From a virus (Duplodnaviria > Caudoviricetes), in the IMG/VR virus record IMGVR_UViG_3300027770_002684, positions 1 to 53,524 of that record: a stretch of 53,524 nt of DNA. One strand, written 5' to 3'. The position numbers and the translations under genes were made by a program. Below are positions 21,062-53,523 of the stretch, piece by piece. The stretch's first letter is position 1. Every line of letters begins with the position of its first letter. The notes beneath the pieces are model-generated. The model ran no database searches. It was given only the letters and a program-made list of their open reading frames with translations, and was not told the origin of the DNA.

Positions 21062-22069
21062 CTATAAGGGCTGGAATTTAAATTTAGGCTCTTGTAAATC
21101 CATAAGACATGTACACCATTGAGATGTACATGTCACATCATCATTAACAAATCCAAAATCATCGTCGTTAATGTTTCCAATAATACCCCCAACTCTACAT
21201 ACTCCTCGATAGATTAATTCGTGCTGTATTGTAATAAGATCGCGCCCGATTGAACATTTCCAGCCCTTATAGTTATTCCTCTTGTGTTCTACAATCTCAT
21301 AAACACTTTCAGTATTAGCACTGCCGTCGTCGTATTCAACATTCATCTTGGTTCCATATTGTGAAGACATTGGTATAAATGCCATCTTTTTTGTTGATCG
21401 AAGTTTACCAGGTCTAGAAATGTTTTCTAATAACAACTTGGTTTGTTCAGGTGTGTATTGTGCAATCTCTCTAGGACTAAACGAACCGTTGGTATAGTAG
21501 AATATTGCCTTTAAACTAGAGATAGCCCCTGTATTTTCTAAGAACAGTTGATGTCGTCTGTTGCCTTCTTCAAGTAATGTTATGGGAGCAGTGACTTGAA
21601 TGCGAACATCTGTGGCAGTATCATGAAACATATTGGCTACATCTATTGTATGCTGTTCGTCTTTATCTTGTTCTGTATGATGCGTTAGGAATAAAATGTC
21701 TAACACATTCATTTCTGCTAATTCTTTCCACCATCTCAGTGTTCTACTACCGTTGCTAATTATAGCAACCTTATGACCGTTCTCTCTAATAAATGCAAGT
21801 AATTCAGGAAGCCTTGGATATAGTGTTGGCTCTCCGCCAGTAATTTGAAACCAAATGAACTTATTTTCTTTTTCTGCCTGCACCATTAATTTTTTAGATA
21901 CTTGTTTATACTTGTCAATTGAATGCCATCTTTCGGTACCTATTTTGTTTTCATCTCCACAAAATGAGCAATCGAAATTACATACATTATGAATCTTCCA
22001 TTCTACTGTTTTGTATTTTCTTGGAATCGCTCTTTTTATTTTAATTGGGATTACTTTTTTATTGGTCAT
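21062..22069 (-). CDS. Radical SAM protein with C-terminal Cys-rich (twitch/SPASM-like) domain
   Basis: CNFDCSFC, ITGGEP, SNG; WKCSIG...YRGVC...C....CTC. Confidence 0.9.
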   Translation of the reverse strand: MTNKKVIPIKIKRAIPRKYKTVEWKIHNVCNFDCSFCGDENKIGTERWHSIDKYKQVSKKLMVQAEKENKFIWFQITGGEPTLYPRLPELLAFIRENGHKVAIISNGSRTLRWWKELAEMNVLDILFLTHHTEQDKDEQHTIDVANMFHDTATDVRIQVTAPITLLEEGNRRHQLFLENTGAISSLKAIFYYTNGSFSPREIAQYTPEQTKLLLENISRPGKLRSTKKMAFIPMSSQYGTKMNVEYDDGSANTESVYEIVEHKRNNYKGWKCSIGRDLITIQHELIYRGVCRVGGIIGNINDDDFGFVNDDVTCTSQWCTCLMDLQEPKFKFQPL

Positions 22070-22143
22070 CAATCATTCCTATTATGTAGGTATTTATTAT
22101 ATGGATAAGACACGTTAATAAATATTTACGGAGAAACAGATAC

Positions 22144-43981: not shown

Positions 43982-44010
43982 TTGACATTGACGGGTTTTT
44001 CCTGTATAAT
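43982..44010 (+). promoter_or_regulatory. Consensus sigma70 promoter
   Basis: TTGACA-17-TATAAT, followed by ACACAC leader. Confidence 0.88.
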
Positions 44011-44042
44011 TATACTCATACACACACACAGAAAGGTTAGTT

Positions 44043-44465
44043 ATGCCAGGAATAGCACTAGAAGGTAGCATTACCTCTTGGGAAAATCGCCCACAATGCC
44101 AAATAGCAGGATGTTGTAATCCTGCTATGTACAACTATCAATATGCTGATGGAGATTGGAAATGGCGAGTAAGACACGGTAAAATTATTTGTGGGGCCCA
44201 TCAGCGTAAAAGTTGGCATCCTACGCTTAAACATCGTAAAGATTACTGCGAAAATGTTTCTGGTTTTTTAGGGTTTAAATGTACTACTAACTTGGTCTGG
44301 AATGGTATGTTAGATGTAGATCATAAAAACGGCAATCCTGGTGATAATAGACCTGCTAATCTACAAACTCTGTGTAAGTGCTGTCATATGTATAAAACAC
44401 ATAAGAACAAAGACTACCTAACAGATGGGCGTAAGACTTTGGGATTTACTAATAGTTACAAGTAA
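44043..44465 (+). CDS. HNH endonuclease
   Basis: LDVDHKNGN..DN...NLQTLC.CCH..KT. Confidence 0.85.
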   Translation: MPGIALEGSITSWENRPQCQIAGCCNPAMYNYQYADGDWKWRVRHGKIICGAHQRKSWHPTLKHRKDYCENVSGFLGFKCTTNLVWNGMLDVDHKNGNPGDNRPANLQTLCKCCHMYKTHKNKDYLTDGRKTLGFTNSYK

Positions 44466-44550
44466 ATACCCCGCTGTAGCACTATACAGATATAGTCTTA
44501 CAGCGTATATACAAATACCCCGCTATACAGGCCACACCAAATACCCCGCT
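44464..44550. repeat. Three direct repeats AAATACCCCGCT
   Basis: Copies start at 44464, 44513, 44539. Confidence 0.8.
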
Positions 44551-45185
44551 ATAGCACCCTTGCCCAGAACCCATAATACACTACATCGAAGTCGATCCTA
44601 CGTAGTGAAAGGTTGAGACCAAAGAATATCCTGACTACAGTGTGATTTCCTTTGGTCGAATGGTAGACCATTTTACGATAGCCTCTCATCCCCACCGTGC
44701 TCCAATCTAAATCCACTATAGATCTAACAGAAATCTACGGCGAAAAAGGATCAATCTACGGTGGATTCGACGCATTTTGGAGCGTTTTTCCACCGTGAAT
44801 CCCAGATTTCTGACCCAAAACTGCCCCAAAATAGTATCACATTACTCAGTGTAGAGTAACATATTCTACTGTGTAATCACTATGCATGTTGTAGATCTAC
44901 TACAGTGTGAGTTGTCCATAGTTGGGATCTGTGTTATACTATGCGTATATACACCGAGACTTGTCTATGAGTAGTGTATATGTAAACCGTAAGCAGCAGG
45001 ATAGACATACAGATTTGATTAGGGGCCGGAAGCCTGGGCGATCGATTGGGTATGTTGAGTCTGATTGTAGATCTTCGTTACTGTTGCTGAACTCGCGACC
45101 AGCCCTTCCGGTGGTTGAGGACCCTCTTTGTAGATGAACAGGCGAGATGGGCGGCGATACTGGGAAACGCAGAGATCGCTGACTG

Positions 45186-45225
45186 AGATAACCCTATAGT
45201 TGAGTAAGCTATAGGGTTATCTTTT
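45186..45225 (+). terminator. 14-bp hairpin with short T run
   Basis: AGATAACCCTATAG-9 nt-CTATAGGGTTATCT-TTT. Confidence 0.6.
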
Positions 45226-45297
45226 GAGTAGATACAATCTATATTATGTTAACCGGGGTCGGAGTGCCGGCTGTGTGGCGGTTATACAACGGATTCA

Positions 45298-45336
45298 CTT
45301 TACATTGGCTTTACATTGGCTTTACATATCTTTACA
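45298..45336. repeat. Tandem CTTTACA(TTGG) x4
   Basis: Units at 45298, 45309, 45320, 45330. Confidence 0.85.
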
Positions 45337-45346
45337 AAGAAATGAG

Positions 45347-45375
45347 TTGACAAAATGGTAAAACCATTGTATAAT
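45347..45375 (+). promoter_or_regulatory. Repeated early promoter
   Basis: TTGACA-17-TATAAT; spacer AATGGT-AAA-ACCATT. Confidence 0.9.
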
Positions 45376-45402
45376 TGACACTTACACACACTGGAGCACA
45401 CT

Positions 45403-45645
45403 ATGCTGACAAACGAAAGCGAAATTATAAACAATGCTACTATTACACACGACTACGAAGCAGAAGCCATGCAGTCGTTTGAAGCCACGGGCGACGACAT
45501 GATGGACGAACTAACTGAGCGATTTGAGAGTGAGTTTACCAACTTTGATCTTGCAGATGATGTTGGGGGGCTGGTGCTCTACAGACGAGCAGGCGTTTTA
45601 GTAGCGTTCTACGACTACGAGCAGTTCCACGGCGCTGTATTGTAA
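45403..45645 (+). CDS. Acidic early protein
   Basis: GGAG SD; D/E-rich. Confidence 0.8.
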   Translation: MLTNESEIINNATITHDYEAEAMQSFEATGDDMMDELTERFESEFTNFDLADDVGGLVLYRRAGVLVAFYDYEQFHGAVL

Positions 45646-45682
45646 AGTGCCAGAGTGTTGTAGAAATACAGCACTCTTCAGG

Positions 45683-45711
45683 TTGACAAAGTGGTAAAAC
45701 CATTGTATAAT
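45683..45711 (+). promoter_or_regulatory. Repeated early promoter
   Basis: TTGACA-17-TATAAT; upstream hairpin GAGTGTTGTA-GAAA-TACAGCACTC. Confidence 0.9.
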
Positions 45712-45717
45712 ACACAC

Positions 45718-46068
45718 ATGAACAAAGAAACAGTCACCCGCAAGAAACGTGTAGATCGCAATCACATCATCTACGAACTCGTAGTCAATGGGTTGAACTA
45801 CATAGGTGTCACTGCTAAGACTGAGACTACTGTGCAGAAGTCAGTTCGTGTTCGTGCTAACAAGCATTTCTACCGTGCTAAGACTGAGAACAAAGACTGG
45901 GCCCTGTGCGTGGCTCTACGTGAGTTGTCAGACAAGAGCGAGATAGAGATACGCATACACGAGATCATCCGTGGCAAGGCTGCTGCACATCGGCGGGAAG
46001 TTGAGATCCGTCGTGCTATTAACCCTGCGCTGAATACGGACATTCGCGGCGACTTGACAGCGGGCTAA
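45718..46068 (+). CDS. GIY-YIG-like nuclease-domain protein, probably leaderless
   Basis: HIIYEL...NYIGVT...R...H...E...LN; ATG 6 nt after the -10 box with no SD. Confidence 0.65.
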   Translation: MNKETVTRKKRVDRNHIIYELVVNGLNYIGVTAKTETTVQKSVRVRANKHFYRAKTENKDWALCVALRELSDKSEIEIRIHEIIRGKAAAHRREVEIRRAINPALNTDIRGDLTAG

Positions 46069-46082
46069 GAACCTGCTATAAT
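46054..46082 (+). promoter_or_regulatory. Repeated early promoter
   Basis: TTGACA-17-TATAAT plus ACACACTTACACACTAAGGAGC. Confidence 0.9.
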
Positions 46083-46108
46083 ACACACTTACACACTAAG
46101 GAGCTACC

Positions 46109-46336
46109 ATGTTTGATTCGTTTACTCGTATACGCCCGGCCACTTGCCGCCTGATGGACATGATGGATGCAGGTGAGATCGATACCCGTATAGTAGCAGA
46201 GATGGCCCTGATGTGGCTGTCGGAGAGTTCCGTTGCCGAGATGATGCAGGCCAACGACATCTTGCAAGAAGAAGCGGCGGATGACGGCCAGCCCGATGAA
46301 GCACAAGAGTGGGAATCTTTTGATCCTGACTGCTGA
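46109..46336 (+). CDS. Acidic early protein
   Basis: AAGGAG SD; tail DGQPDEAQEWESFDPDC. Confidence 0.8.
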   Translation: MFDSFTRIRPATCRLMDMMDAGEIDTRIVAEMALMWLSESSVAEMMQANDILQEEAADDGQPDEAQEWESFDPDC

Positions 46337-46342
46337 AAACGG

Positions 46343-46371
46343 TTGACACATTGGTAAAACCATTGTATAAT
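46343..46371 (+). promoter_or_regulatory. Repeated early promoter
   Basis: Identical to 51883-51911. Confidence 0.9.
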
Positions 46372-46398
46372 TGACACTTACACACTAAGGAGCACGAC

Positions 46399-46638
46399 AT
46401 GCAAGTATTTCAACTAATCGAGCGTTTGATGGACTTGGACCCTAACGCCGAAGTCCACTTGAGTTATAACTATGGCGACCACTGGAGCACCCAAGTGGCC
46501 CCTACTGTGGACACGGTAGACGAGGGACTGGTGAAGTATAGCGACTATCACCGCATGGACACGTTGATGGATGAGGACGAGATGATCGAAGATGAAGGCG
46601 ACTTCGAAGGTACTCGCCGTGTGGTAGTCTTAGGTTGA
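46399..46638 (+). CDS. Acidic early protein
   Basis: SD; stop TGA lies inside the next TTGACA. Confidence 0.8.
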   Translation: MQVFQLIERLMDLDPNAEVHLSYNYGDHWSTQVAPTVDTVDEGLVKYSDYHRMDTLMDEDEMIEDEGDFEGTRRVVVLG

Positions 46639-46663
46639 CAAGACTGGTAAGACCAGTTATAAT
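46635..46663 (+). promoter_or_regulatory. Repeated early promoter
   Basis: Spacer ACTGGT-AAG-ACCAGT. Confidence 0.9.
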
Positions 46664-46690
46664 ATACACTTACACACAAAGGAGCTAGAG

Positions 46691-46978
46691 ATGCTTTCAA
46701 TCGCAGATATCAACACCGCTATCATCAGCCAAACATGGACCAACGATCAACTGACATCTATGATTGATGCTGTCAAGTTCGCTCGTTCGCGTTTAGCGAA
46801 ACAGACCATGCGTCAACTGCACATCGGTGATCCTGTGGTGTTCAATGCCAAGGACGGACGTGCTGTCAACGGCATGGTGACTAAGATTGCTATCAAGTTC
46901 GTCACAGTGAAGACCAACATTGGCTCTTGGCGAGTGCCTGCTAGCATGTTGCGTATCGTAGAACGCGAACTGGCATAA
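46691..46978 (+). CDS. Early protein, SH3/KOW-like C-terminus
   Basis: IGDPVVF...G.VTKI..K.V.V.....WRVP. Confidence 0.75.
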   Translation: MLSIADINTAIISQTWTNDQLTSMIDAVKFARSRLAKQTMRQLHIGDPVVFNAKDGRAVNGMVTKIAIKFVTVKTNIGSWRVPASMLRIVERELA

Positions 46979-46983
46979 AGAGG

Positions 46984-47012
46984 TTGACACGGGAGCGATC
47001 CCGTGTTATAAT
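46984..47012 (+). promoter_or_regulatory. Repeated early promoter
   Basis: Hairpin ACACGGGA-GCGA-TCCCGTGT. Confidence 0.9.
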
Positions 47013-47038
47013 ACACGCTTACACACACTGGAGCACCT

Positions 47039-47416
47039 ATGCAATATTACGATGAACTTGCGCAGTACGAGCGCGAAGGCTTTTCAATCATTGTGGACAA
47101 GACCTATGAAGACATGCATCCCCGGGACACGTTCGACGACAGCTGCCACAACATTGACGAGATCTGTGAGAAGATTGACAACGGGACCTACGAATGGTTT
47201 ATGTTGCGAGTACGTGTACTCGTCGAAGGGCTCGAACTATCACGCGAGCATGTGGGCGGATGCCTATACTATGACGTCCGCGAAGTCCTTACTGACGGGA
47301 CTGCCGAAGACCTCATTGACAGTGCGATGACTGATGCCAAGAAGCAGGTCTATCGACTAAGCCGGGTGTTCGCTGGCCTAAGCGAGCAGGTGGATCGGGA
47401 GGGTGCCTGTGCTTGA
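47039..47416 (+). CDS. Hypothetical early protein
   Basis: GGAG SD; acidic. Confidence 0.8.
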   Translation: MQYYDELAQYEREGFSIIVDKTYEDMHPRDTFDDSCHNIDEICEKIDNGTYEWFMLRVRVLVEGLELSREHVGGCLYYDVREVLTDGTAEDLIDSAMTDAKKQVYRLSRVFAGLSEQVDREGACA

Positions 47417-47633
47417 TAACGTTTTAAAATGGAGTGGCATGGCATTGGTCATCGCCGGTGCCCTATGCACTAGTTTGCGCATTGACCCTTTGAACATCTT
47501 GTTGCTCAATGCGGGTGCTCTTGTCTACATGATATGGGCATTGCGAATTCAAGAAATGAACTTGGTGATCGTCAATGCAGTGCTTTTGGCTATCTATGCA
47601 GTAGGATTAATGCAAGTGCCAAAACCGTTGTAG
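47403..47633 (+). CDS. Small membrane protein (about 3 TM)
   Basis: Three hydrophobic stretches; start may be GTG 47409. Confidence 0.7.
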   Translation: MPVLDNVLKWSGMALVIAGALCTSLRIDPLNILLLNAGALVYMIWALRIQEMNLVIVNAVLLAIYAVGLMQVPKPL

Positions 47634-47652
47634 AAATACAACAACAAAGAGG

Positions 47653-47681
47653 TTGACATATTGGTAAAACCGTTGTATAAT
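47653..47681 (+). promoter_or_regulatory. Repeated early promoter
   Basis: TTGACA-17-TATAAT; upstream GTTGTA-GAAA-TACAAC. Confidence 0.9.
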
Positions 47682-47707
47682 TAACGCTTACACACTAAGG
47701 AGCACAG

Positions 47708-47992
47708 ATGTTCACTACAGACAACCAAACCGCACTCAAAGACGAACTGAACCTCATGTTCAAAGAGCAGGGTGCCGCGTTCACCGCAGGCTACTCCAAC
47801 ATGATGGTGCAGGAGATGCTGATGTTCTTGCCCAAACGCAAGCAGAAAGAGTTCATCCAGCAGGTTGCTGCCTTCAACGGTCGCCAACTAGTCACTGTGA
47901 AGAACTGCTTGACTGGTCAGGAAGTTGAGATCCGCCGTGAAGATGTGGGCACCTGCAACGATCCGAGTCGCGAACTGTTCCATACAATGTGA
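47708..47992 (+). CDS. Hypothetical early protein
   Basis: SD; C-terminal VKNCLTG.EVEI.......DPS.E.FH.M. Confidence 0.8.
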   Translation: MFTTDNQTALKDELNLMFKEQGAAFTAGYSNMMVQEMLMFLPKRKQKEFIQQVAAFNGRQLVTVKNCLTGQEVEIRREDVGTCNDPSRELFHTM

Positions 47993-47994
47993 GG

Positions 47995-48023
47995 TTGACA
48001 GAGGAGCAATCCTCTGTTATAAT
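47995..48023 (+). promoter_or_regulatory. Repeated early promoter, no SD/ORF downstream
   Basis: Hairpin ACAGAGGA-GCAA-TCCTCTGT. Confidence 0.9.
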
Positions 48024-48029
48024 ACACGC

Positions 48030-48143
48030 ATAGACAGATTTGTTTAGTAAGTGCCTCTAGACTGAAGTCGGTCGAGATCTATGAATGCTCAGGCAGATGT
48101 ATAGGAGTGAAGGCAAGCAGATAAGAGCACTTACTAAACAAAG
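48030..48143 (+). ncRNA. Candidate small structured RNA
   Basis: Own promoter; perfect 16-bp closing stem 48039-48054/48127-48142; no SD-led ORF. Confidence 0.6.
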
Positions 48144-48146
48144 TGG

Positions 48147-48175
48147 TTGACAAGTTGGTAGAAGAGTGTTATAAT
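48147..48175 (+). promoter_or_regulatory. Repeated early promoter
   Basis: TTGACA-17-TATAAT-ACACGCATAG. Confidence 0.9.
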
Positions 48176-48181
48176 ACACGC

Positions 48182-48322
48182 ATAGGGAAACAAGTTTAGG
48201 GTTACTCCAGAACGCAACGCAGGACGCATTAAATAGACCTTGAAGGTCAGCCCGCAAGGGATGCATGTCAAAACGCTGAGCAGGGAGGATTAAATCAGTC
48301 TGTGACTGAGCCCATCTTTTTT
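48182..48322 (+). ncRNA. Candidate structured RNA or 5' leader
   Basis: Hairpins GACCT-TGA-AGGTC, CCC-GCAA-GGG, TCAGTC-TGT-GACTGA, then T6. Confidence 0.5.
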
Positions 48323-48333
48323 AGGAGCATAGT

Positions 48334-48492
48334 ATGGGACATTGGGAATTTGGAGAGTTCCGCATTGGACGCTTATTCCACTGCAACGGTAACGACTACA
48401 TCAAACAATCAACACGCACTGCACGGTTGCTCAGCAACGGACGCATCTTCTACTTCGGTAAGAACGAAGTCATTCACGCTATCGCATACTAA
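48334..48492 (+). CDS. Small early protein (52 aa), not in ORF track
   Basis: AGGAG SD; MGHWEFGEFRIGRLFHCNGNDYIK. Confidence 0.75.
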   Translation: MGHWEFGEFRIGRLFHCNGNDYIKQSTRTARLLSNGRIFYFGKNEVIHAIAY

Positions 48493-48502
48493 GGAGCACA
48501 CA

Positions 48503-48664
48503 ATGAAAGAGCAACTACTGGCCTTGGCCTACGAGCAGGAAGATGATGTGTTTGGCTCCAGTGAGCGTGATGAGTTCGATTGTTTGATCGCCCTGATCGA
48601 AGATGGCACCATCAACACCTTTGAAGAACTTGCCCGTTACGGAGTTGAACGATCCGGTGAATAA
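48503..48664 (+). CDS. Small acidic protein (53 aa)
   Basis: AAGGAG SD before MKEQLL. Confidence 0.75.
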   Translation: MKEQLLALAYEQEDDVFGSSERDEFDCLIALIEDGTINTFEELARYGVERSGE

Positions 48665-48673
48665 CCCTGCAGG

Positions 48674-48702
48674 TTGACAGGTCATTCAAACGGTGCTATA
48701 AT
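48674..48702 (+). promoter_or_regulatory. Repeated early promoter
   Basis: TTGACA-17-TATAAT plus conserved leader. Confidence 0.9.
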
Positions 48703-48729
48703 ACACACATACACACTAAGGAGCACAAG

Positions 48730-48831
48730 ATGAAGTTCACAGCAGAACAACTGGCCGCATACATGAAGGGCATGACCATTGCACAGGCAGCAGCCATGTG
48801 GCAAGTGTTGGTTGACAAAGGCATTGTTTGA
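48730..48831 (+). CDS. 33-aa peptide, not in ORF track
   Basis: Own promoter and SD; MKFTAEQLAAYMKGMTIAQAAAMWQVLVDKGIV. Confidence 0.7.
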   Translation: MKFTAEQLAAYMKGMTIAQAAAMWQVLVDKGIV

Positions 48832-48840
48832 AGTTATAAT
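48812..48840 (+). promoter_or_regulatory. Repeated early promoter
   Basis: TTGACA-17-TATAAT plus conserved leader. Confidence 0.9.
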
Positions 48841-48866
48841 ACACACATACACACTAAGGAGCACTC

Positions 48867-49109
48867 ATGTTTACACTGGCAAATGTTCAAAAAGTATATA
48901 CCGGCCGTTTGGGATGTATGTGCGGATGCAGGGGACGATACAGTTATGCCCAGGGCTGTGATGAAGGCTACGACGATCAAGTTAATGAGCGGAGTGTCAA
49001 ACTCATCTTCAACAAGGTAATGAACCACCCTGATCGCAAAATGGACGGCAATGATATTGCTTATGTTATGACTGACACACGCAATCTCGTTGTGTATTTT
49101 AAAGATTGA
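48867..49109 (+). CDS. Hypothetical early protein
   Basis: SD; YTGR.GCMCGCRG.Y motif. Confidence 0.8.
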   Translation: MFTLANVQKVYTGRLGCMCGCRGRYSYAQGCDEGYDDQVNERSVKLIFNKVMNHPDRKMDGNDIAYVMTDTRNLVVYFKD

Positions 49110-49111
49110 GG

Positions 49112-49140
49112 TTGACAGGTCTGGTAAAACCTGTTACAAT
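49112..49140 (+). promoter_or_regulatory. Repeated early promoter
   Basis: TTGACA-17-TACAAT; ACAGGT...ACCTGT. Confidence 0.88.
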
Positions 49141-49169
49141 ATACGCTTACACACTAAGGAGCACAGCAA

Positions 49170-49646
49170 ATGGGAACACGCAGTCGAATTGGAGTCATGC
49201 ACGGAGACAAGTGCAAAAGCATCTACTGTCATTGGGATGGCTATCTGTCGCACAATGGCAAGATCCTGCAAGAGCACTACGATAGTGCCAAGGCCAATCA
49301 TCTCGTGGCAATGGGCGACATGAGCAGCCTGGATAACCATATCGGTGAGAAGCATCCCTTCAGCGGCTACTCGGGCGAAGAAGATAAAGCCTTGTATGAA
49401 CAAGCCCGCGAGAAGCATTGGTCTACATTCTACGCTCGCGATCGCGGTGAGACAGGTGTAGAGTTCAAAGTAGCACAAGACTTCGCAGAGTTCCTGGAGC
49501 AATGCGATAGCTGCGGTGCTGAATACTACTACATCATGAAGGACGGTGTTTGGTATTGTGGTACCACATACGAGAACACACACCCCTTGAGCAAGACTTT
49601 AACGGTGTTGACTGAAGCATTGGCAAACGAAAAGGAAACTGTATGA
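49170..49646 (+). CDS. Phage early protein
   Basis: MGTRSRIG...SIYCHWDGY....G..L..HY; EYYY. Confidence 0.85.
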   Translation: MGTRSRIGVMHGDKCKSIYCHWDGYLSHNGKILQEHYDSAKANHLVAMGDMSSLDNHIGEKHPFSGYSGEEDKALYEQAREKHWSTFYARDRGETGVEFKVAQDFAEFLEQCDSCGAEYYYIMKDGVWYCGTTYENTHPLSKTLTVLTEALANEKETV

Positions 49647-49816
49647 GCAAGATGAGTGATATGGCTTACGACATTGAGCAACTCTACATTGAAGGCTATA
49701 GTGCCCGAACGATCGCGATCATGTTGGAGTGCCCGATCGATCTGGTCTACAATTGGATCGATGGCAACGGTGTGGCAGATATCCCACAAGGGGAGGATGA
49801 ACATTCGGCAAATTAA
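49643..49816 (+). CDS. Small HTH-like protein (57 aa), not in ORF track
   Basis: ATGA overlap; LYIEGYSARTIAIMLECPIDLVYNWI. Confidence 0.7.
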   Translation: MSKMSDMAYDIEQLYIEGYSARTIAIMLECPIDLVYNWIDGNGVADIPQGEDEHSAN

Positions 49817-49828
49817 TCCAGAAAACGG

Positions 49829-49857
49829 TTGACAACGAACCTAATCCGTTGTATAAT
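49829..49857 (+). promoter_or_regulatory. Repeated early promoter
   Basis: TTGACA-17-TATAAT; ACAACG...CGTTGT. Confidence 0.88.
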
Positions 49858-49914
49858 TAAGGTATGGAAAGTAATTATGCAATCCATATTTCACACACAC
49901 AGAAGAGGTATTTT

Positions 49915-50331
49915 ATGACTGACAAGACTTTTAAATTCGCAGGTGTTTCTACTCGTAATGGTGTTTGCAAGGCTCGCTTTGCCAATGACCAAATGCGTGT
50001 CAAGGTGCTGGCCAAGACCGGCAGCAAGGACATCGATCTGATTGAACTCAAAGAGCCCATGACCAAAGCGGCTGCTATCGCGTTCCTGATCTTCATCAAC
50101 TTCGACAACGGCAATGCCACTGTGCGGGCTGCTCTTGAGGAAGGCTTGGAGAAGCGTACCGTAGTTGCCCGGGCACCTAAAGCTGTTAAAGCCAAAGCGG
50201 CTCCTAAGGCCAAGGCTGTGAAGTCCAAGCCCACTATGGACGCTATCAAGGCCAAGGTTGCGGCTGCTACCAAGCCTAAGAAGGCAGACATCGTTGCCCA
50301 GATGGCAGACATGGAAGAAGCACCCTACTGA
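49915..50331 (+). CDS. Protein with Lys/Ala/Pro-rich histone-like tail
   Basis: GAGG SD before MTDKTF; APKAVKAKAAPKAKAVKSKP. Confidence 0.8.
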   Translation: MTDKTFKFAGVSTRNGVCKARFANDQMRVKVLAKTGSKDIDLIELKEPMTKAAAIAFLIFINFDNGNATVRAALEEGLEKRTVVARAPKAVKAKAAPKAKAVKSKPTMDAIKAKVAAATKPKKADIVAQMADMEEAPY

Positions 50332-50406
50332 TAGCGGGGTATTGGGGCCCAGTGTGCCCCATTTAGTAAAATACATTGGGTAGTGTGTTTTACCAAAGGA
50401 AACAAT

Positions 50407-50652
50407 ATGAGTAAACTGGCATATCTGGGTAGACCGTGGACTGTGTTCGAAGCAAAGAACAAGCAGCATCGAGCATGGTTCGCAGAGTTCCAACACAAGC
50501 GGACATGGAGCAATTGTCCTGTGAGATTTGTAGTAGCAGATGATCAAGGTGATCTGGTTACTATGATCCAGCAACGCTTGATTGAATACTACACAACACG
50601 AGAATTCGGTAAAGTTGAAGACCAAAAGTACTTGACCTTGGTCAAGCGATAG
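50407..50652 (+). CDS. Hypothetical protein
   Basis: AAGGA SD before MSKLAY; RPW.VF...N..HR...W..CPVRF. Confidence 0.78.
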   Translation: MSKLAYLGRPWTVFEAKNKQHRAWFAEFQHKRTWSNCPVRFVVADDQGDLVTMIQQRLIEYYTTREFGKVEDQKYLTLVKR

Positions 50653-50700
50653 TGTAATATTAGTGTAACTGTGTGAACAGTATAACATTAAGGAAAACAA

Positions 50701-50976
50701 ATGACAACATATAATATCAACCAAGGGACCAAGACCCACAAGCTATTCACCGCATTGAAGTCGGGTGAGGCAGTCAGTGCCAGCCAAGCAGAGAAGCGTT
50801 TCGGTATCAAGAACATCAGTGCCGAAGTTAGCCGTATCCGTGCAGCAGGTTTCGCAGTGTACGGTAACACCCGTGTCGCTGGCAACCATGTTGAAGTGAA
50901 AGAATATGTAATCGGACAGCCATCACGCAAGTTGATCGCAGCCGGTTACAAGGCAATGGCATTGGGCCTTGTCTAA
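50701..50976 (+). CDS. Winged-HTH DNA-binding protein
   Basis: L..ALKSGE.VSA.QA..RFGI.N.SA.VS.IR..GF.VY. Confidence 0.75.
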   Translation: MTTYNINQGTKTHKLFTALKSGEAVSASQAEKRFGIKNISAEVSRIRAAGFAVYGNTRVAGNHVEVKEYVIGQPSRKLIAAGYKAMALGLV

Positions 50977-51118
50977 AGAACGCTCCAAAGTCTGAAGTCG
51001 CGTATCAGACACAAGTCCCAGGGGGTAGTGTCCCTGGGCAAACCCCCGAACCCCGTATGCCGCAAAGTATATGGGGTTCATCTATTGTGGTCAACCTCTC
51101 TCCGAAAGACCCGCCAGG

Positions 51119-51147
51119 TTGACAGGGTATTCAGATCCTGCTATAAT
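51119..51147 (+). promoter_or_regulatory. Repeated early promoter
   Basis: CAGGGT...ATCCTG spacer. Confidence 0.9.
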
Positions 51148-51171
51148 ACACACATAGACAGCAAGGAGCAC

Positions 51172-51372
51172 ATGATGATCAAAGTAGCAAAGATGACAGA
51201 CGGCAAGGTAGTCGAGGTCGTTCGGGTTGCGGACACTGTAGGCTTCAGCACCGAGCGGGGGTGGGTCATGGTCTGCTTCGACTTTGAGAAGATCAGTCGC
51301 AAGCGTGAGCAATTCAAGTGGGTGCCGGCCACTACTCGATTTGAGTGGGTTAGAGAATACACTTTCGGTTGA
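51172..51372 (+). CDS. Hypothetical early protein
   Basis: SD before MMIKVAK; stop inside next TTGACA. Confidence 0.78.
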   Translation: MMIKVAKMTDGKVVEVVRVADTVGFSTERGWVMVCFDFEKISRKREQFKWVPATTRFEWVREYTFG

Positions 51373-51397
51373 CAGGGTCTTAGGATCCTGCTATAAT
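51369..51397 (+). promoter_or_regulatory. Repeated early promoter
   Basis: CAGGGTC-TTAG-GATCCTG. Confidence 0.9.
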
Positions 51398-51424
51398 ACA
51401 CACATGAACACAAAGGAGCACAAA

Positions 51425-51634
51425 ATGACAGCGATTACAGTAGCAGAGATGATAGAGGCATTGAGCCAGTTGCCAGGGGACGCAGAGTTGGTAGTGACCG
51501 AAAGCGGTTATTACTCTTATGGCGAGTTTGCCAACATCATGTTGCCAGAAGCCTACACCGTAGAAGGTGTGGACAATGATGCAGATGTGGGCAAGGTAGT
51601 CTACCGCATTGGTCACTCACACCAATCTTACTAA
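51425..51634 (+). CDS. Hypothetical early protein
   Basis: SD; TVAEMIEALSQLP.DAE resembles the N-terminus of 46399-46638. Confidence 0.78.
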   Translation: MTAITVAEMIEALSQLPGDAELVVTESGYYSYGEFANIMLPEAYTVEGVDNDADVGKVVYRIGHSHQSY

Positions 51635-51641
51635 GGAGCAT

Positions 51642-51875
51642 ATGATGCAAGCAGAAGCAACCCGGTCCGCATATTACGACACACGCCACGGTGGACCATT
51701 CGATCGTGGCAGTGCCGACTTCTACTATGGTCGTTCGTTCAATCCTCACTACTTCGTCGGTGACACCTACTCCACTCCTAAGATCGAGTTGGCCCAGATG
51801 ACTGCGGCAGAGATCGCAGGTTACACCGCAGGCTACCGCTATGGTGAAGAACTGGGCGATCGTAAAGAGTGGTAG
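51642..51875 (+). CDS. Hypothetical early protein
   Basis: SD; RHGGPFDRGSAD.YYGR. Confidence 0.8.
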   Translation: MMQAEATRSAYYDTRHGGPFDRGSADFYYGRSFNPHYFVGDTYSTPKIELAQMTAAEIAGYTAGYRYGEELGDRKEW

Positions 51876-51882
51876 AAAGAGG

Positions 51883-51911
51883 TTGACACATTGGTAAAAC
51901 CATTGTATAAT
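51883..51911 (+). promoter_or_regulatory. Repeated early promoter
   Basis: Identical to 46343-46371. Confidence 0.9.
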
Positions 51912-51938
51912 TAACACTTACACACACTGGAGCACACG

Positions 51939-52205
51939 ATGAAAGCACTACAGACATACATCGACAACAAGAACCGTTGGAACGCTATCTTCAAAGGTGA
52001 GCAGTTCGAAATCCAAAGTGCCAAGGGTCGACAGCGAGTCGCTGACAGCCTGGACGCAGACCTGAGCCCAGAGAACTTGACCTGTGATGGCGAACTGTCG
52101 CGTCAAGAGATACGGATGCGTTACGATTTCCTGCAACAGGCGGCTGTGCAGTTGACAGCATTGGATCCGCAGGTTAAGATGTATGAGTTCTACACTGGAG
52201 AATAA
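51939..52205 (+). CDS. Hypothetical early protein
   Basis: SD; LSPENLTCDGEL motif. Confidence 0.82.
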   Translation: MKALQTYIDNKNRWNAIFKGEQFEIQSAKGRQRVADSLDADLSPENLTCDGELSRQEIRMRYDFLQQAAVQLTALDPQVKMYEFYTGE

Positions 52206-52206
52206 G

Positions 52207-52356
52207 ATGGACAGAGACGAACTGCTGGCAAAGGTCTATGAACAGATGGAACGCGATATCCGCAACGAAGATTTAACAGCCATTGAAGAACTGTTGAGCA
52301 CAGTGTCTGATGCGGCTTTACTTGGTTTTTTACCCGAAGGAGATTTCAATGCCTAA
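52207..52356 (+). CDS. Small acidic protein (49 aa), not in ORF track
   Basis: GGAG SD; MDRDELLAKVYEQMERD. Confidence 0.72.
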   Translation: MDRDELLAKVYEQMERDIRNEDLTAIEELLSTVSDAALLGFLPEGDFNA

Positions 52357-52870
52357 TTGGTGCAATAACACGCTGAACATCCGCCACGAAGATCCTGCTA
52401 TGATTGAGCGGGCCCGTAAGGCTTTTACCGACGGCAGGTTCCTGGAGGAGTTCATTCCGTTCCCTAATGGTGAGTGGGATTGGAACTTCTGTGTAGCCAA
52501 CTGGGGTACCAAGTGGGATATCGGTGGTGGGGATGGTCACACCGTAGAGCAAGATGCCAATGGTGTCGTGTTCAACTTCGACAGTGCCTGGGCACCACCC
52601 CTTGCTGCCTATGAGCGGTTGATGGGCATGGGCTTTGAGATCCTGGCCTACTACTTTGAACCCGGCATGGCGTTCGCAGGCAAGTGGGAAGATGGTTGCG
52701 ATGACTACTACGAATATGGTGGCATGACCAGTGAGCAGATCGCTGATGAGTTGCCCGATGACCTGGATGAGACCTTTGACATCAGCGGCCAGGTTGCTGA
52801 GTGGGAAGCCGAGGACGAGGAGAACATTGAGATCGACCTTGATGGAGGTGCGAGTTCCACTAACGAATAA
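52349..52870 (+). CDS. DUF1281/YubB-like protein
   Basis: MPNWC.N, NWGTKWD, FDSAWAPP, Y.EPGM.FAG. Confidence 0.8.
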   Translation: MPNWCNNTLNIRHEDPAMIERARKAFTDGRFLEEFIPFPNGEWDWNFCVANWGTKWDIGGGDGHTVEQDANGVVFNFDSAWAPPLAAYERLMGMGFEILAYYFEPGMAFAGKWEDGCDDYYEYGGMTSEQIADELPDDLDETFDISGQVAEWEAEDEENIEIDLDGGASSTNE

Positions 52871-52901
52871 CCCTACACACTGTAGGGTCTTTACAGCACA
52901 C

Positions 52902-52930
52902 TTGACAGGTGTGCTGTTCTGCGTTATAAT
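52902..52930 (+). promoter_or_regulatory. Repeated early promoter with -35 box at hairpin tip
   Basis: ACAGCACACTT-GAC-AGGTGTGCTGT; TATAAT at 17-nt spacing. Confidence 0.88.
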
Positions 52931-52955
52931 ACACACATAAACACTAAGGAACACG

Positions 52956-53123
52956 ATGAAGAAAATATGTGCTAACGGAATGACACGCTGGGCAATGATG
53001 TACCAAATTAAGTTGCAATGCGACACTAACAGTGCTTGCTACAAAATGACAGACGAAGAACTTGTTGCAACTTATAATGCGATTTTTAATATTGCACAAA
53101 AAGACTTGACAACGGCAGACTGA
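52956..53123 (+). CDS. Small early protein (55 aa), not in ORF track
   Basis: AAGGA SD; MKKICANGMTRWAMM. Confidence 0.7.
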   Translation: MKKICANGMTRWAMMYQIKLQCDTNSACYKMTDEELVATYNAIFNIAQKDLTTAD

Positions 53124-53134
53124 ACTGCTATAAT
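53106..53134 (+). promoter_or_regulatory. Repeated early promoter
   Basis: TTGACA-17-TATAAT plus leader. Confidence 0.9.
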
Positions 53135-53163
53135 ACACACTTAAACACTAAACGGAGCACAAC

Positions 53164-53523
53164 ATGCAAACAGCACTGACAACACAATTTGCTAAAGTTA
53201 GCGACAAACTGACACTGGAACACACTGGTGTTGAAGACGACGACACACTGCACACGGAATACAAGTGCAACGTAGAAGTGCAACTGGCAGGTGACAGCAT
53301 ATGGGACTGCGAACTGCAAGCGGTTACTATTACGGGCGTACACATTAGCGAAACGTTTGACGAAGACGACGGGGACGTTTACGCACACATTGGGGTGACT
53401 TACGAAGTAGACGGCGAAGACGGTGCTGAAGTAGAAGGCAGCTGGCGGCTGTACACAGACAACGGCTTTAGCGATGCTGTGAGCGAGTTGCTGGGAACAG
53501 ATGTAGACTTTACAGAGCAAGGT
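53164..53523 (+). CDS. Acidic early protein, 3'-truncated
   Basis: GGAG SD; MQTALTTQ...LYTDNGF...VDFTEQG, open to the window end. Confidence 0.8.
   Translation, partial: MQTALTTQFAKVSDKLTLEHTGVEDDDTLHTEYKCNVEVQLAGDSIWDCELQAVTITGVHISETFDEDDGDVYAHIGVTYEVDGEDGAEVEGSWRLYTDNGFSDAVSELLGTDVDFTEQG

Follow-up and report, generated by a model that had tools for sequence, protein, structure and literature searches.

A stem-closed hairpin behind a consensus early promoter, conserved across shuffled cassettes of uncultured jumbo phages, is a candidate small RNA gene

The element described here lies in an IMG/VR virus record that was analysed over its full length of 53,524 bp (hereafter the window) and whose completeness is estimated at 15% (CheckV). 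Since relatives found via a gene neighbouring the element include complete genomes of 330–364 kb, two of them with terminal repeats, the window is a fragment of an uncultured jumbo phage of about 350 kb. Its left 44 kb encodes a DNA ligase, radical-SAM proteins and tail-fibre-like proteins and includes a block of low GC content, while the right 9.5 kb forms an early-type region. Perfect TTGACA-N17-TATAAT promoters occur 19 times in the window, where 0.06 would be expected; 18 of the 19 are on the + strand, all within positions 43982–53134. Nearly every promoter heads a typical cassette in which a small ORF comes after a stereotyped leader (ACACAC-TTACACAC-TAAGGAGCAC), and the Shine-Dalgarno sequence (SD) AAGGAGCAC is present in every ordinary cassette of the early region. 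None of the six early ORFs tested belongs to a Pfam family. Five of the 19 promoters have a stem of 5 bp or more in their −35/spacer part (shuffled mean 0.97, shuffled maximum 5).

One of these promoters, P1, is followed by a different kind of cargo (Table 1). As stated in the initial annotation, this consensus promoter (12 of 12 positions) has neither an SD nor an SD-led ORF behind it, the sole reading frame being one of 21 aa that lacks an SD. Fifteen bases after P1 begins a perfect 16-bp inverted repeat that encloses 72 nt and gives a 104-nt element (48039–48142). The element ends right at the next promoter, as also noted at the outset: the −35 hexamer of P2 begins at 48147, 4 nt past the 3′ arm. 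The leader variant CATAGACAG is also found in ordinary cassettes, for example behind the promoter at 51119. P2 in turn is followed by a long leader without an ORF of its own, which has a homologue in contig L099 and is absent from L004. The anatomy of the element, together with the lack of an SD-led ORF, bears out the first description of an early consensus promoter with a non-coding cargo.

Table 1 Features at and around the hairpin element (positions refer to the window)
Feature	Position	Strand	Remarks
94-aa ORFan in a promoter-leader-SD-ORF cassette	47708..47992	+	No Pfam family; homologues in L002–L004 with 79–87% aa identity
Promoter P1, TTGACA-N17-TATAAT	47995..48023	+	Consensus match, 12/12
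Stem in −35/spacer of P1, 8 bp, PeSL-like	47998-48005 / 48010-48017	+	
Short leader ACACGCATAGACAGA	48024..48038	+	Transcription start near 48030 predicted from distance to the −10 hexamer
5′ arm TTTGTTTAGTAAGTGC of the perfect 16-bp closing helix	48039..48054	+	Invariant in all copies (partly forced by the search pattern)
Interior, 72 nt, 64% purine	48055..48126	+	Holds all 5 variable sites
3′ arm GCACTTACTAAACAAA	48127..48142	+	100% complementary to the 5′ arm
21-aa ORF without SD	48085..48150	+	Stop inside the −35 hexamer of P2; judged an unlikely gene
Promoter P2	48147..48175	+	Consensus match, 12/12; no spacer stem (2 bp)
Second non-coding cargo, leader of ~150 nt before the 52-aa gene	48176..48333	+	Fold z = 0.23; contains direct repeat D3
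52-aa ORFan (MGHWEF...), first gene downstream	48334..48492	+	No Pfam family; homologues in L004, L093, L097 and L005

The pairing of the segments at 48039 and 48127 recorded in the initial annotation is complete over all 16 positions. Its proposed extension by TCT/AGA also reappeared: both the minimum free energy (MFE) and the centroid fold add UCU/AGA (48056–48058 with 48124–48126), 3 bp that follow a 1-nt bulge. The interior is purine-rich as first described, its length being 72 rather than about 65 nt. The full hairpin RNA folds at −36.2 kcal/mol (z = −3.41), and the + strand folds better than the − strand (−28.2 kcal/mol). On its own, the 72-nt interior folds no better than its shuffles (z = +0.47), which places the source of the structural signal in the closing helix. 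The window contains a single perfect 16-bp inverted repeat whose arms lie within 150 nt of each other, and a repeat of such quality arose in two of 200 windows simulated with a first-order Markov model; the G+C content of the arms is 31%. In the modelled fold, the 16 bp, the 1-nt bulge and the additional 3 bp amount to about two turns of nearly uninterrupted double-stranded RNA, which would give the geometry of an RNase III substrate. By eye, three TGAA(G/T)(G/T)C motifs are discernible in the interior at a spacing of about 21–25 bp.

We searched the locus for known RNA families and signals. Rfam 15 returned no match at the gathering score in the whole window, the models including small ribozymes, CRISPR-DR, ToxI, SRP, 6S and Y-RNA-like families; at E ≤ 10, the sole match in 47900–48400 was a chance snoU25 hit outside the element. 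ARAGORN found no tRNA or tmRNA gene in the window. These scans, of which the Rfam search had been suggested as a check, agree with the earlier statement that no known family could be assigned. The terminator scan listed no intrinsic terminator at the hairpin, which has a 72-nt loop and no U-tract and whose stem is followed by GTGGTTGACA. No tandem-repeat array was detected in 47900–48400 (TRF, minimum score 30). A complementarity search of the interior, likewise suggested at the outset and carried out within the 53.5-kb window, gave nothing beyond chance, as the longest perfect complement measured 11 nt and was equalled by 143 of 200 shuffled queries. The more specific roles first offered for the RNA (decoy, antitoxin mimic or guide) thus found no backing in the form of tandem repeats at the locus, an Rfam match of CRISPR-repeat or ToxI type, or a complementary target in the 53.5 kb. 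Likenesses to a type I-F CRISPR repeat, 4.5S/SRP RNA, CsrA sites and a hammerhead core were dropped, as the Rfam scans gave them no support.

Exact-pattern scans located the element in two viral contigs (L005 and L006) and in seven further metagenome records. L005 and L006 represent the same phage type from two metagenomes, L096 is identical to L006 and L098 to L005, and the flanks of L097 are the same as those of L095. Deduplication accordingly left seven distinct contexts: the window, L005 (with L006, L096 and L098), L093, L094, L095 (with L097), L099 and L101. Two further hits were excluded. L100, from the metagenome scan, is an unrelated palindromic contig, and L102, from an Ekhidna metagenome-assembled genome and the one hit of a bacterial-genome scan, is an unrelated perfect palindrome; neither enters any of the counts. 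The bacterial-genome scan covered gaps of 40–70 nt and hence only elements with an interior shorter than the 72 nt found here.

Across the seven contexts there are four sequence variants that differ at five of the 104 positions, with identities of 97–100%, so that the collection of homologs proposed as a check turned out as a functional RNA predicts. Other segments of at least 100 nt that align with the window in the same contigs are 65–91% identical, and the conservation of the hairpin exceeds that of all its protein-coding neighbours. The variable sites (48069, 48082, 48090, 48100 and 48106) all fall in the apical half (48069–48106), and positions 48107–48126 are invariant in all copies; the invariance of the stem is partly forced, as the search pattern required 11 nt of each arm. 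Immediately outside, the flanking positions 48038 and 48143 vary among the copies, which delimits the conserved unit precisely to the hairpin. In all seven contexts the hairpin points the same way with respect to the downstream promoter and genes. One substitution, C>U at 48069 in L093, converts a C-G into a U-G pair, which can form only in the + strand RNA. None of the 37 pairs of the hairpin is changed on both sides, the copies being nearly identical, and two of the five substitutions (48082 and 48100) break predicted interior pairs. The sequence conservation appears unusually strong, as expected for a functional RNA; recent lateral spread could also give high identity.

The distribution of the element is patchy. 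It is absent from the contigs of the closest relatives as judged by the upstream 94-aa gene, such as L002 and L004. GenBank phages gave no match to positions 47600–48700 (blastn, distant setting), and interior-based exact scans of viral contigs returned L005 and L006 only. Searches of 1.25–1.32 Mb of early regions from 80 relatives with blastn, with nhmmer and with R1, a covariance model derived from the sequence variants, yielded only the known copies, all of which R1 recovers in this search. R1 detected no copy in any of five complete relatives (330–364 kb, 95–100% complete), a search that had no positive control of its own. Because it is missing from close relatives, from the early regions and from all five complete relatives, the element appears to be accessory and restricted to a narrow subclade. 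It is present once in the window and once in each holder contig, these being fragments that are 8–15% complete where estimated.

Sampled words of positions 44000–53500 were partly present in 24 runs from 14 studies, with at least half of them in two runs only; two runs labelled freshwater held 96% and 59%, and the former may represent the sample from which the window derives. An RNA library among the 24 shared a 0.07 fraction of the sampled words, and contigs of relatives in this run extend across 24 of 30 bins, including two bins around the hairpin element. The four runs compared (X24, X1, X2 and X3) were all available as assembled contigs, from which RNA ends and levels cannot be read and in which DNA carry-over is possible.

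Gene order around the element is different in every contig, and homologous genes stand in differing order across L002–L005, L093–L101 and the window. The right junction always reads (G/T)(T/A)GG followed by TTGACA. On the left, four forms occur: a promoter with CATAGACAG(A), a promoter with CATAGACAGCAACAA(A), a weak promoter ending in AAAATGC, and a truncated TTGACACGCATC. Compared with “empty” relatives, the extra DNA comprises a whole promoter-plus-cargo unit, with the cargo lying between two promoters as direct repeats. This insertion footprint matches the one that homologous recombination at repeated promoters, rather than transposition, would be expected to leave. The same plasticity qualifies the initial view that the hairpin has a promoter of its own. 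P1 fully matches the consensus, but its position is partly a by-product of recombination: in L004 the homologue of P1 directly drives the 52-aa gene (in L002, another ORF), and L093 and L094 lack a consensus promoter directly upstream of the hairpin.

Arrangements of this kind are known as PeSL cassettes in T4-type phages, where strong sigma-70 promoters with stem-loops precede ORFans, recombine and shuffle their cargo, as described by Arbiol et al. 2010 (PMC2839356) and Comeau et al. 2014 (PMC4122927). The early region studied here resembles those descriptions in its dense arrays of sigma-70-consensus promoters before small ORFans and its general plasticity, in possible stem-loops in or beside promoters (stems of at least 5 bp in the five promoters mentioned above, against about 1.0 expected), and in a gene order shuffled at repeats with insertions of the form promoter-cargo-promoter. 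It departs from the cassettes of these accounts in three respects. The cargo is a 104-nt non-coding hairpin instead of an ORF; the stem spans 16 bp around 72 nt and has no G/C tract or U-run, unlike the PeSL stem-loops; and the carrier is an uncultured jumbo phage of about 350 kb. Overall, the array looks PeSL-like, and the hairpin appears to be one cargo among shuffled promoter cassettes, not a transposon.

The hairpin is not the only RNA found in such a position. Relatives place tRNAs directly behind the same kind of promoter, and a non-coding RNA of about 200–250 nt follows this promoter kind in L074 (7447–7652), L075, L018, L010 and L083. The latter RNA is closed by a stem of about 19 bp with compensatory changes in eight of 25 predicted pairs (five sequences), so that closing stems in these phages are under selection as RNA structures. 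It shares with the hairpin the CATAGACAG leader, the long closing stem and the lack of a terminator, the SD of the next gene or a tRNA coming directly after it. It differs in having twice the length and in its covariation support, which the hairpin lacks, and nhmmer detected no homology between the two. By eye, the 5′ words CATAGACAG and GTTTAG are common to both. The two RNAs adjoin in L094, and an identical 29-nt promoter precedes the ~200-nt RNA in L010 and the hairpin in L005. It thus seems usual for this phage family to embed stem-closed RNAs in early read-through transcripts.

Judged from these comparisons, the hairpin most likely represents a new family of small functional RNAs. In the version we prefer, to which we give somewhat less than an even chance, it would be an early trans-acting RNA, carried as the non-coding cargo of a promoter cassette and excised by host RNase III. 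Host polymerase, proposed to be the sigma-70 enzyme that the phage uses for its early promoters, would start near 48030 at P1. The ends of the RNA would pair in the 16(+3)-bp helix and, with no terminator present, transcription would continue through P2. Because no terminator follows the stem, a discrete RNA would need processing. The closing helix could serve as a processing stalk of the sort known from rRNA precursors and the early transcripts of T7; cleavage by host RNase III would release and protect a hairpin RNA of about 100 nt. None of the five complete relatives (95–100% complete) encodes an RNase III domain; any processing would therefore use the host enzyme. The released RNA would then act in trans through its invariant, largely unpaired interior, above all through the purine-rich stretch 48107–48126. 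Its target would probably be a host factor, because the neighbours of the element are never the same and the 53.5 kb hold no complement beyond chance, which would suit an accessory function in host takeover or anti-defence. Like the ORF cassettes, the hairpin cassette would spread among related phages by recombination at the repeated promoters.

RNase III stalks, represented by the stems of rRNA precursors and the R sites of the T7 early region, are helices of about two turns that flank a functional RNA or lie between early cistrons. By analogy, the hairpin may belong with them, as a two-turn helix within a predicted read-through transcript that issues from strong early promoters and whose ends are formed without a terminator. 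The T7 R sites are local hairpins of about 60 nt with an internal loop, whereas here a long-range stem surrounds a conserved interior of 72 nt and RNase III cleavage is a prediction. An RNA function is favoured by the fixed orientation, the better fold of the + strand, the G-U-compatible change, the apical location of the variation and the conservation above that of the neighbours. Against an RNA gene stands the fact that the element is dispensable, being missing from the closest and from the complete relatives.

The same hairpin could alternatively belong to the downstream promoter module. It would then be an oversized PeSL-type stem-loop that acts in cis, either attenuating upstream transcription or being cut by RNase III to uncouple the downstream gene or to give stable mRNA ends, and it would yield no trans product. 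In T4-type phages a PeSL stem-loop can be located 5′ of the −35 box and terminate or attenuate transcription, as described in PMC2839356, and a promoter follows the hairpin directly on its 3′ side in all seven contexts. In four of them (the window, L101, L094 and L095/L097), hairpin and P2 move as one block. P2 also lacks a spacer stem of its own (2 bp, against 8 bp in P1), the outer AACAAA(G) of the 3′ arm overlaps an AAAG(A/T)GG motif that precedes several −35 hexamers (promoters 46984, 47653 and 51883), and a hairpin with no terminator of its own would lie inside longer transcripts. We nevertheless consider a purely cis-acting role unlikely. A structural signal leaves the 97–100% conservation of 72 interior bases with no predicted structure unexplained, and without a U-tract the stem is not an intrinsic terminator. 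In L005, L093 and L099 a different type of promoter lies downstream, so that the hairpin, and not the pair of hairpin and P2, is the conserved unit; moreover, the other 17 + strand cassettes do without such an element.

We regard it as rather improbable that the element is selfish or neutral DNA, that is, a MITE-like palindrome or a by-product of inverted duplication that hitch-hikes between co-infecting phages and whose near-identity reflects recent spread. Its shape is the expected one: 104 nt (<300 bp) without coding capacity, bounded by perfect terminal inverted repeats at which identity drops sharply, present or absent among close relatives, and found with four forms of left junction in a gene order that differs in every contig. 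Precedent exists in the Correia elements (CREE) of Neisseria, which are small, carry inverted repeats, give rise to promoters and serve as binding or cleavage sites of RNase III, as outlined in PMC2649163. With these and other bacterial MITEs, as presented in PMC2649163 and PMC2229807, the hairpin has in common a size of about 100–150 bp, inverted-repeat bounds, a promoter at one end, an RNA hairpin and presence/absence variation. The junctions argue otherwise. No target-site duplication was found at any of the seven junction pairs, the flanks being A/C on the left and G/T plus (T/A)GG on the right, and the inserted unit is a promoter plus cargo between direct promoter repeats, a footprint of recombination. 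Since there is no target duplication, never more than one copy per contig (fragments, as noted above) and only one orientation, always directly upstream of a promoter, the hairpin is probably not a MITE. In addition, substitutions avoid the arms and positions 48107–48126, there is no known transposase partner, and the setting is one of phage early cassettes and not, as for the Correia elements of that account, a bacterial chromosome. The resemblance to Correia-type elements is one of shape only.

A function at the DNA level is very unlikely in our view. Origins of the T4 ori and ColE1 type are primed by transcription through an R-loop, with a strong promoter feeding a purine-rich transcript. 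The element could be such a replication origin, or a place where an early phage protein binds, in that a promoter precedes non-coding sequence whose transcript strand is 64% purine, the arms are AT-rich, and the spaced TGAA(G/T)(G/T)C motifs might serve as sites. One would expect a main origin to belong to the core genome and to keep its synteny, but the element is patchy, accessory and shuffled in position; TRF detects no repeats; and both the constant orientation and the G-U-compatible change speak for RNA. That the 21-aa frame encodes a micro-protein is barely credible: it stays open in all four variants and the shared C>T at 48090 (L095 and L099) is synonymous, but an SD such as the AAGGAGCAC of ordinary cassettes is missing, its 3′ half lies inside the 16-bp helix with the stop within the next −35 hexamer, two of three substitutions are non-synonymous (both in L095), and the 46 nt upstream of the ATG are equally conserved.

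The preferred reading, an RNase III-excised early RNA, has a possible counterpart in the jumbo phage PA5oct, from which ORF-less ncRNAs of 236–619 nt and unknown function, defined by RNA-seq, are reported to be strongly transcribed from early infection (PMC7318152). The hairpin, predicted from sequence, resembles the ncRNAs of that report in occupying an ORF-less region of a jumbo phage that would depend on host RNA polymerase. It stands outside the RNA families described in Rfam and, if processed, would be comparable to an RNase III-excised RNA. The new aspect would be a promoter cassette that trades a non-coding RNA more constant than the neighbouring proteins. A bolder extension, which we think unlikely, would see the hairpin as a self-contained, horizontally exchanged RNA “moron”: a decoy or sponge for a host factor (such as a defence nuclease or an RNA-binding regulator), excised by host RNase III and moved between co-infecting freshwater jumbo phages through recombination from promoter to promoter. 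It would constitute the first PeSL-type shuffling of non-coding RNA genes and be one of a set of stem-closed early RNAs that includes the ~200-nt RNA and the leader at 48176–48333.

If the hairpin were merely a recombination by-product or a cis-acting structure, it would be an ordinary trait of a plastic early region. If the RNA-gene reading is true, the swappable cassettes in which giant lake phages keep their accessory protein genes also hold small RNA genes, and selection holds such an RNA far more constant than the surrounding proteins. The RNA would then join the accessory toolkit of the early region, the usual hunting ground for functions in host takeover and counter-defence. A consensus promoter, no SD and a long closing stem would together provide a search rule for RNAs in uncultured phages, and the PeSL shuffling model would reach beyond T4-type phages and beyond ORFs.

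Several related phages carry a non-coding RNA of ~200–250 nt that seems to represent an as yet undescribed family of phage RNAs. A ~19-bp stem closes the molecule, which shows compensatory changes at 8 of 25 pairs (five sequences) and contains a conserved hairpin, GGTTACCT..TAGG, together with a AGGCAGTAATGACG motif. Its structural support is better than that of the 104-nt hairpin, and no match to it was found in Rfam. A consensus promoter and the leader CATAGACAG lie directly 5′ of this RNA in the relatives, and a tRNA directly follows it in contig L074.

One recurrent promoter variant, TTGACAAG(G/A)CTGTCTATGTGCGTTATAAT, precedes the 104-nt hairpin in some phages and the ~200-nt RNA in another. 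Its spacer, CTGTCTATG, and the transcript leader CATAGACAG are reverse complements of each other, so that they form a 9-bp inverted repeat with the −10 hexamer in its loop.

Two further non-coding cargos were found behind consensus promoters. The second cargo, which forms the leader of the 52-aa gene behind promoter P2, contains a 27-nt direct repeat (48208–48234/48269–48295); its fold is unremarkable (z = 0.23), and it is absent from the related contig L004. A shorter homologue in L099 precedes a gene encoding MMAIVHN..., occupying the same place as the ~200-nt RNA found before the same gene in L010. The third cargo, which is ORF-less, is common to L005 and L006 and partly shared by L093, where it lies immediately 5′ of the hairpin.

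Features of the window and of related contigs (L numbers), with their coordinates
Feature	Location	Remarks
Promoter TTGACAAG(G/A)CTGTCTATGTGCGTTATAAT	L005 7801; L010 13377; L095/L097; L099; L101	
~200–250-nt non-coding RNA	L074 7447–7652; L075 7551–7756; L018 7200–7451; L010 13411–13632; L083 ~1655–1870	
Second non-coding cargo	window 48176–48333	~150-nt leader of 52-aa gene, behind P2
Third ORF-less cargo	L005 2915–3100; also L093, upstream of hairpin	~150 nt, behind consensus promoter
Conserved early gene (MNKETVTRKKRVDRNHIIYEL..NYIGVTAKTE)	window 45683–46068	
Perfect 14-bp hairpin (AGATAACCCTATAG ... CTATAGGGTTATCT)	window 45186–45222	9-nt loop; early region
Perfect 24-bp inverted repeat	window 21053–21076/21258–21281	encloses 181 nt; low-GC block
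Low-GC block	window ~10000–34000	GC 29–36% vs 41–49% elsewhere
tRNA-like cargo/tmRNA in relatives	L008 1514; L051 417, 2358; L059 2374; L067 7797; L081 7795; L018 12346–12670	

The conserved early gene also occurs in many related contigs (e.g., L002 814, L004 1352, L005 1754, L017 769 and L060 8589). Its ATG lies only 6 nt past the −10 hexamer and no SD is present, which points to a leaderless mRNA, an arrangement that the relatives share. The encoded protein matched no Pfam family at E ≤ 0.01; its YIG-containing motif was spotted by eye only.

Other perfect inverted repeats occur in the window. The 14-bp hairpin of the promoter-dense early region is located upstream of a promoter at 45347, and the 24-bp repeat, the longest of its kind in the window, overlaps the end of an ORF (21062–22072). 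The surrounding low-GC block is dense with ORFs of ~170–280 aa on both strands and encodes several radical-SAM proteins.

Reading the sequences of relatives by eye also revealed tRNA-like cargo immediately 3′ of consensus early promoters, and the tRNA in L059 was confirmed with Rfam. The tmRNA in L018 scored best with the betaproteobacterial model, a preference that gives a weak hint as to the host group.
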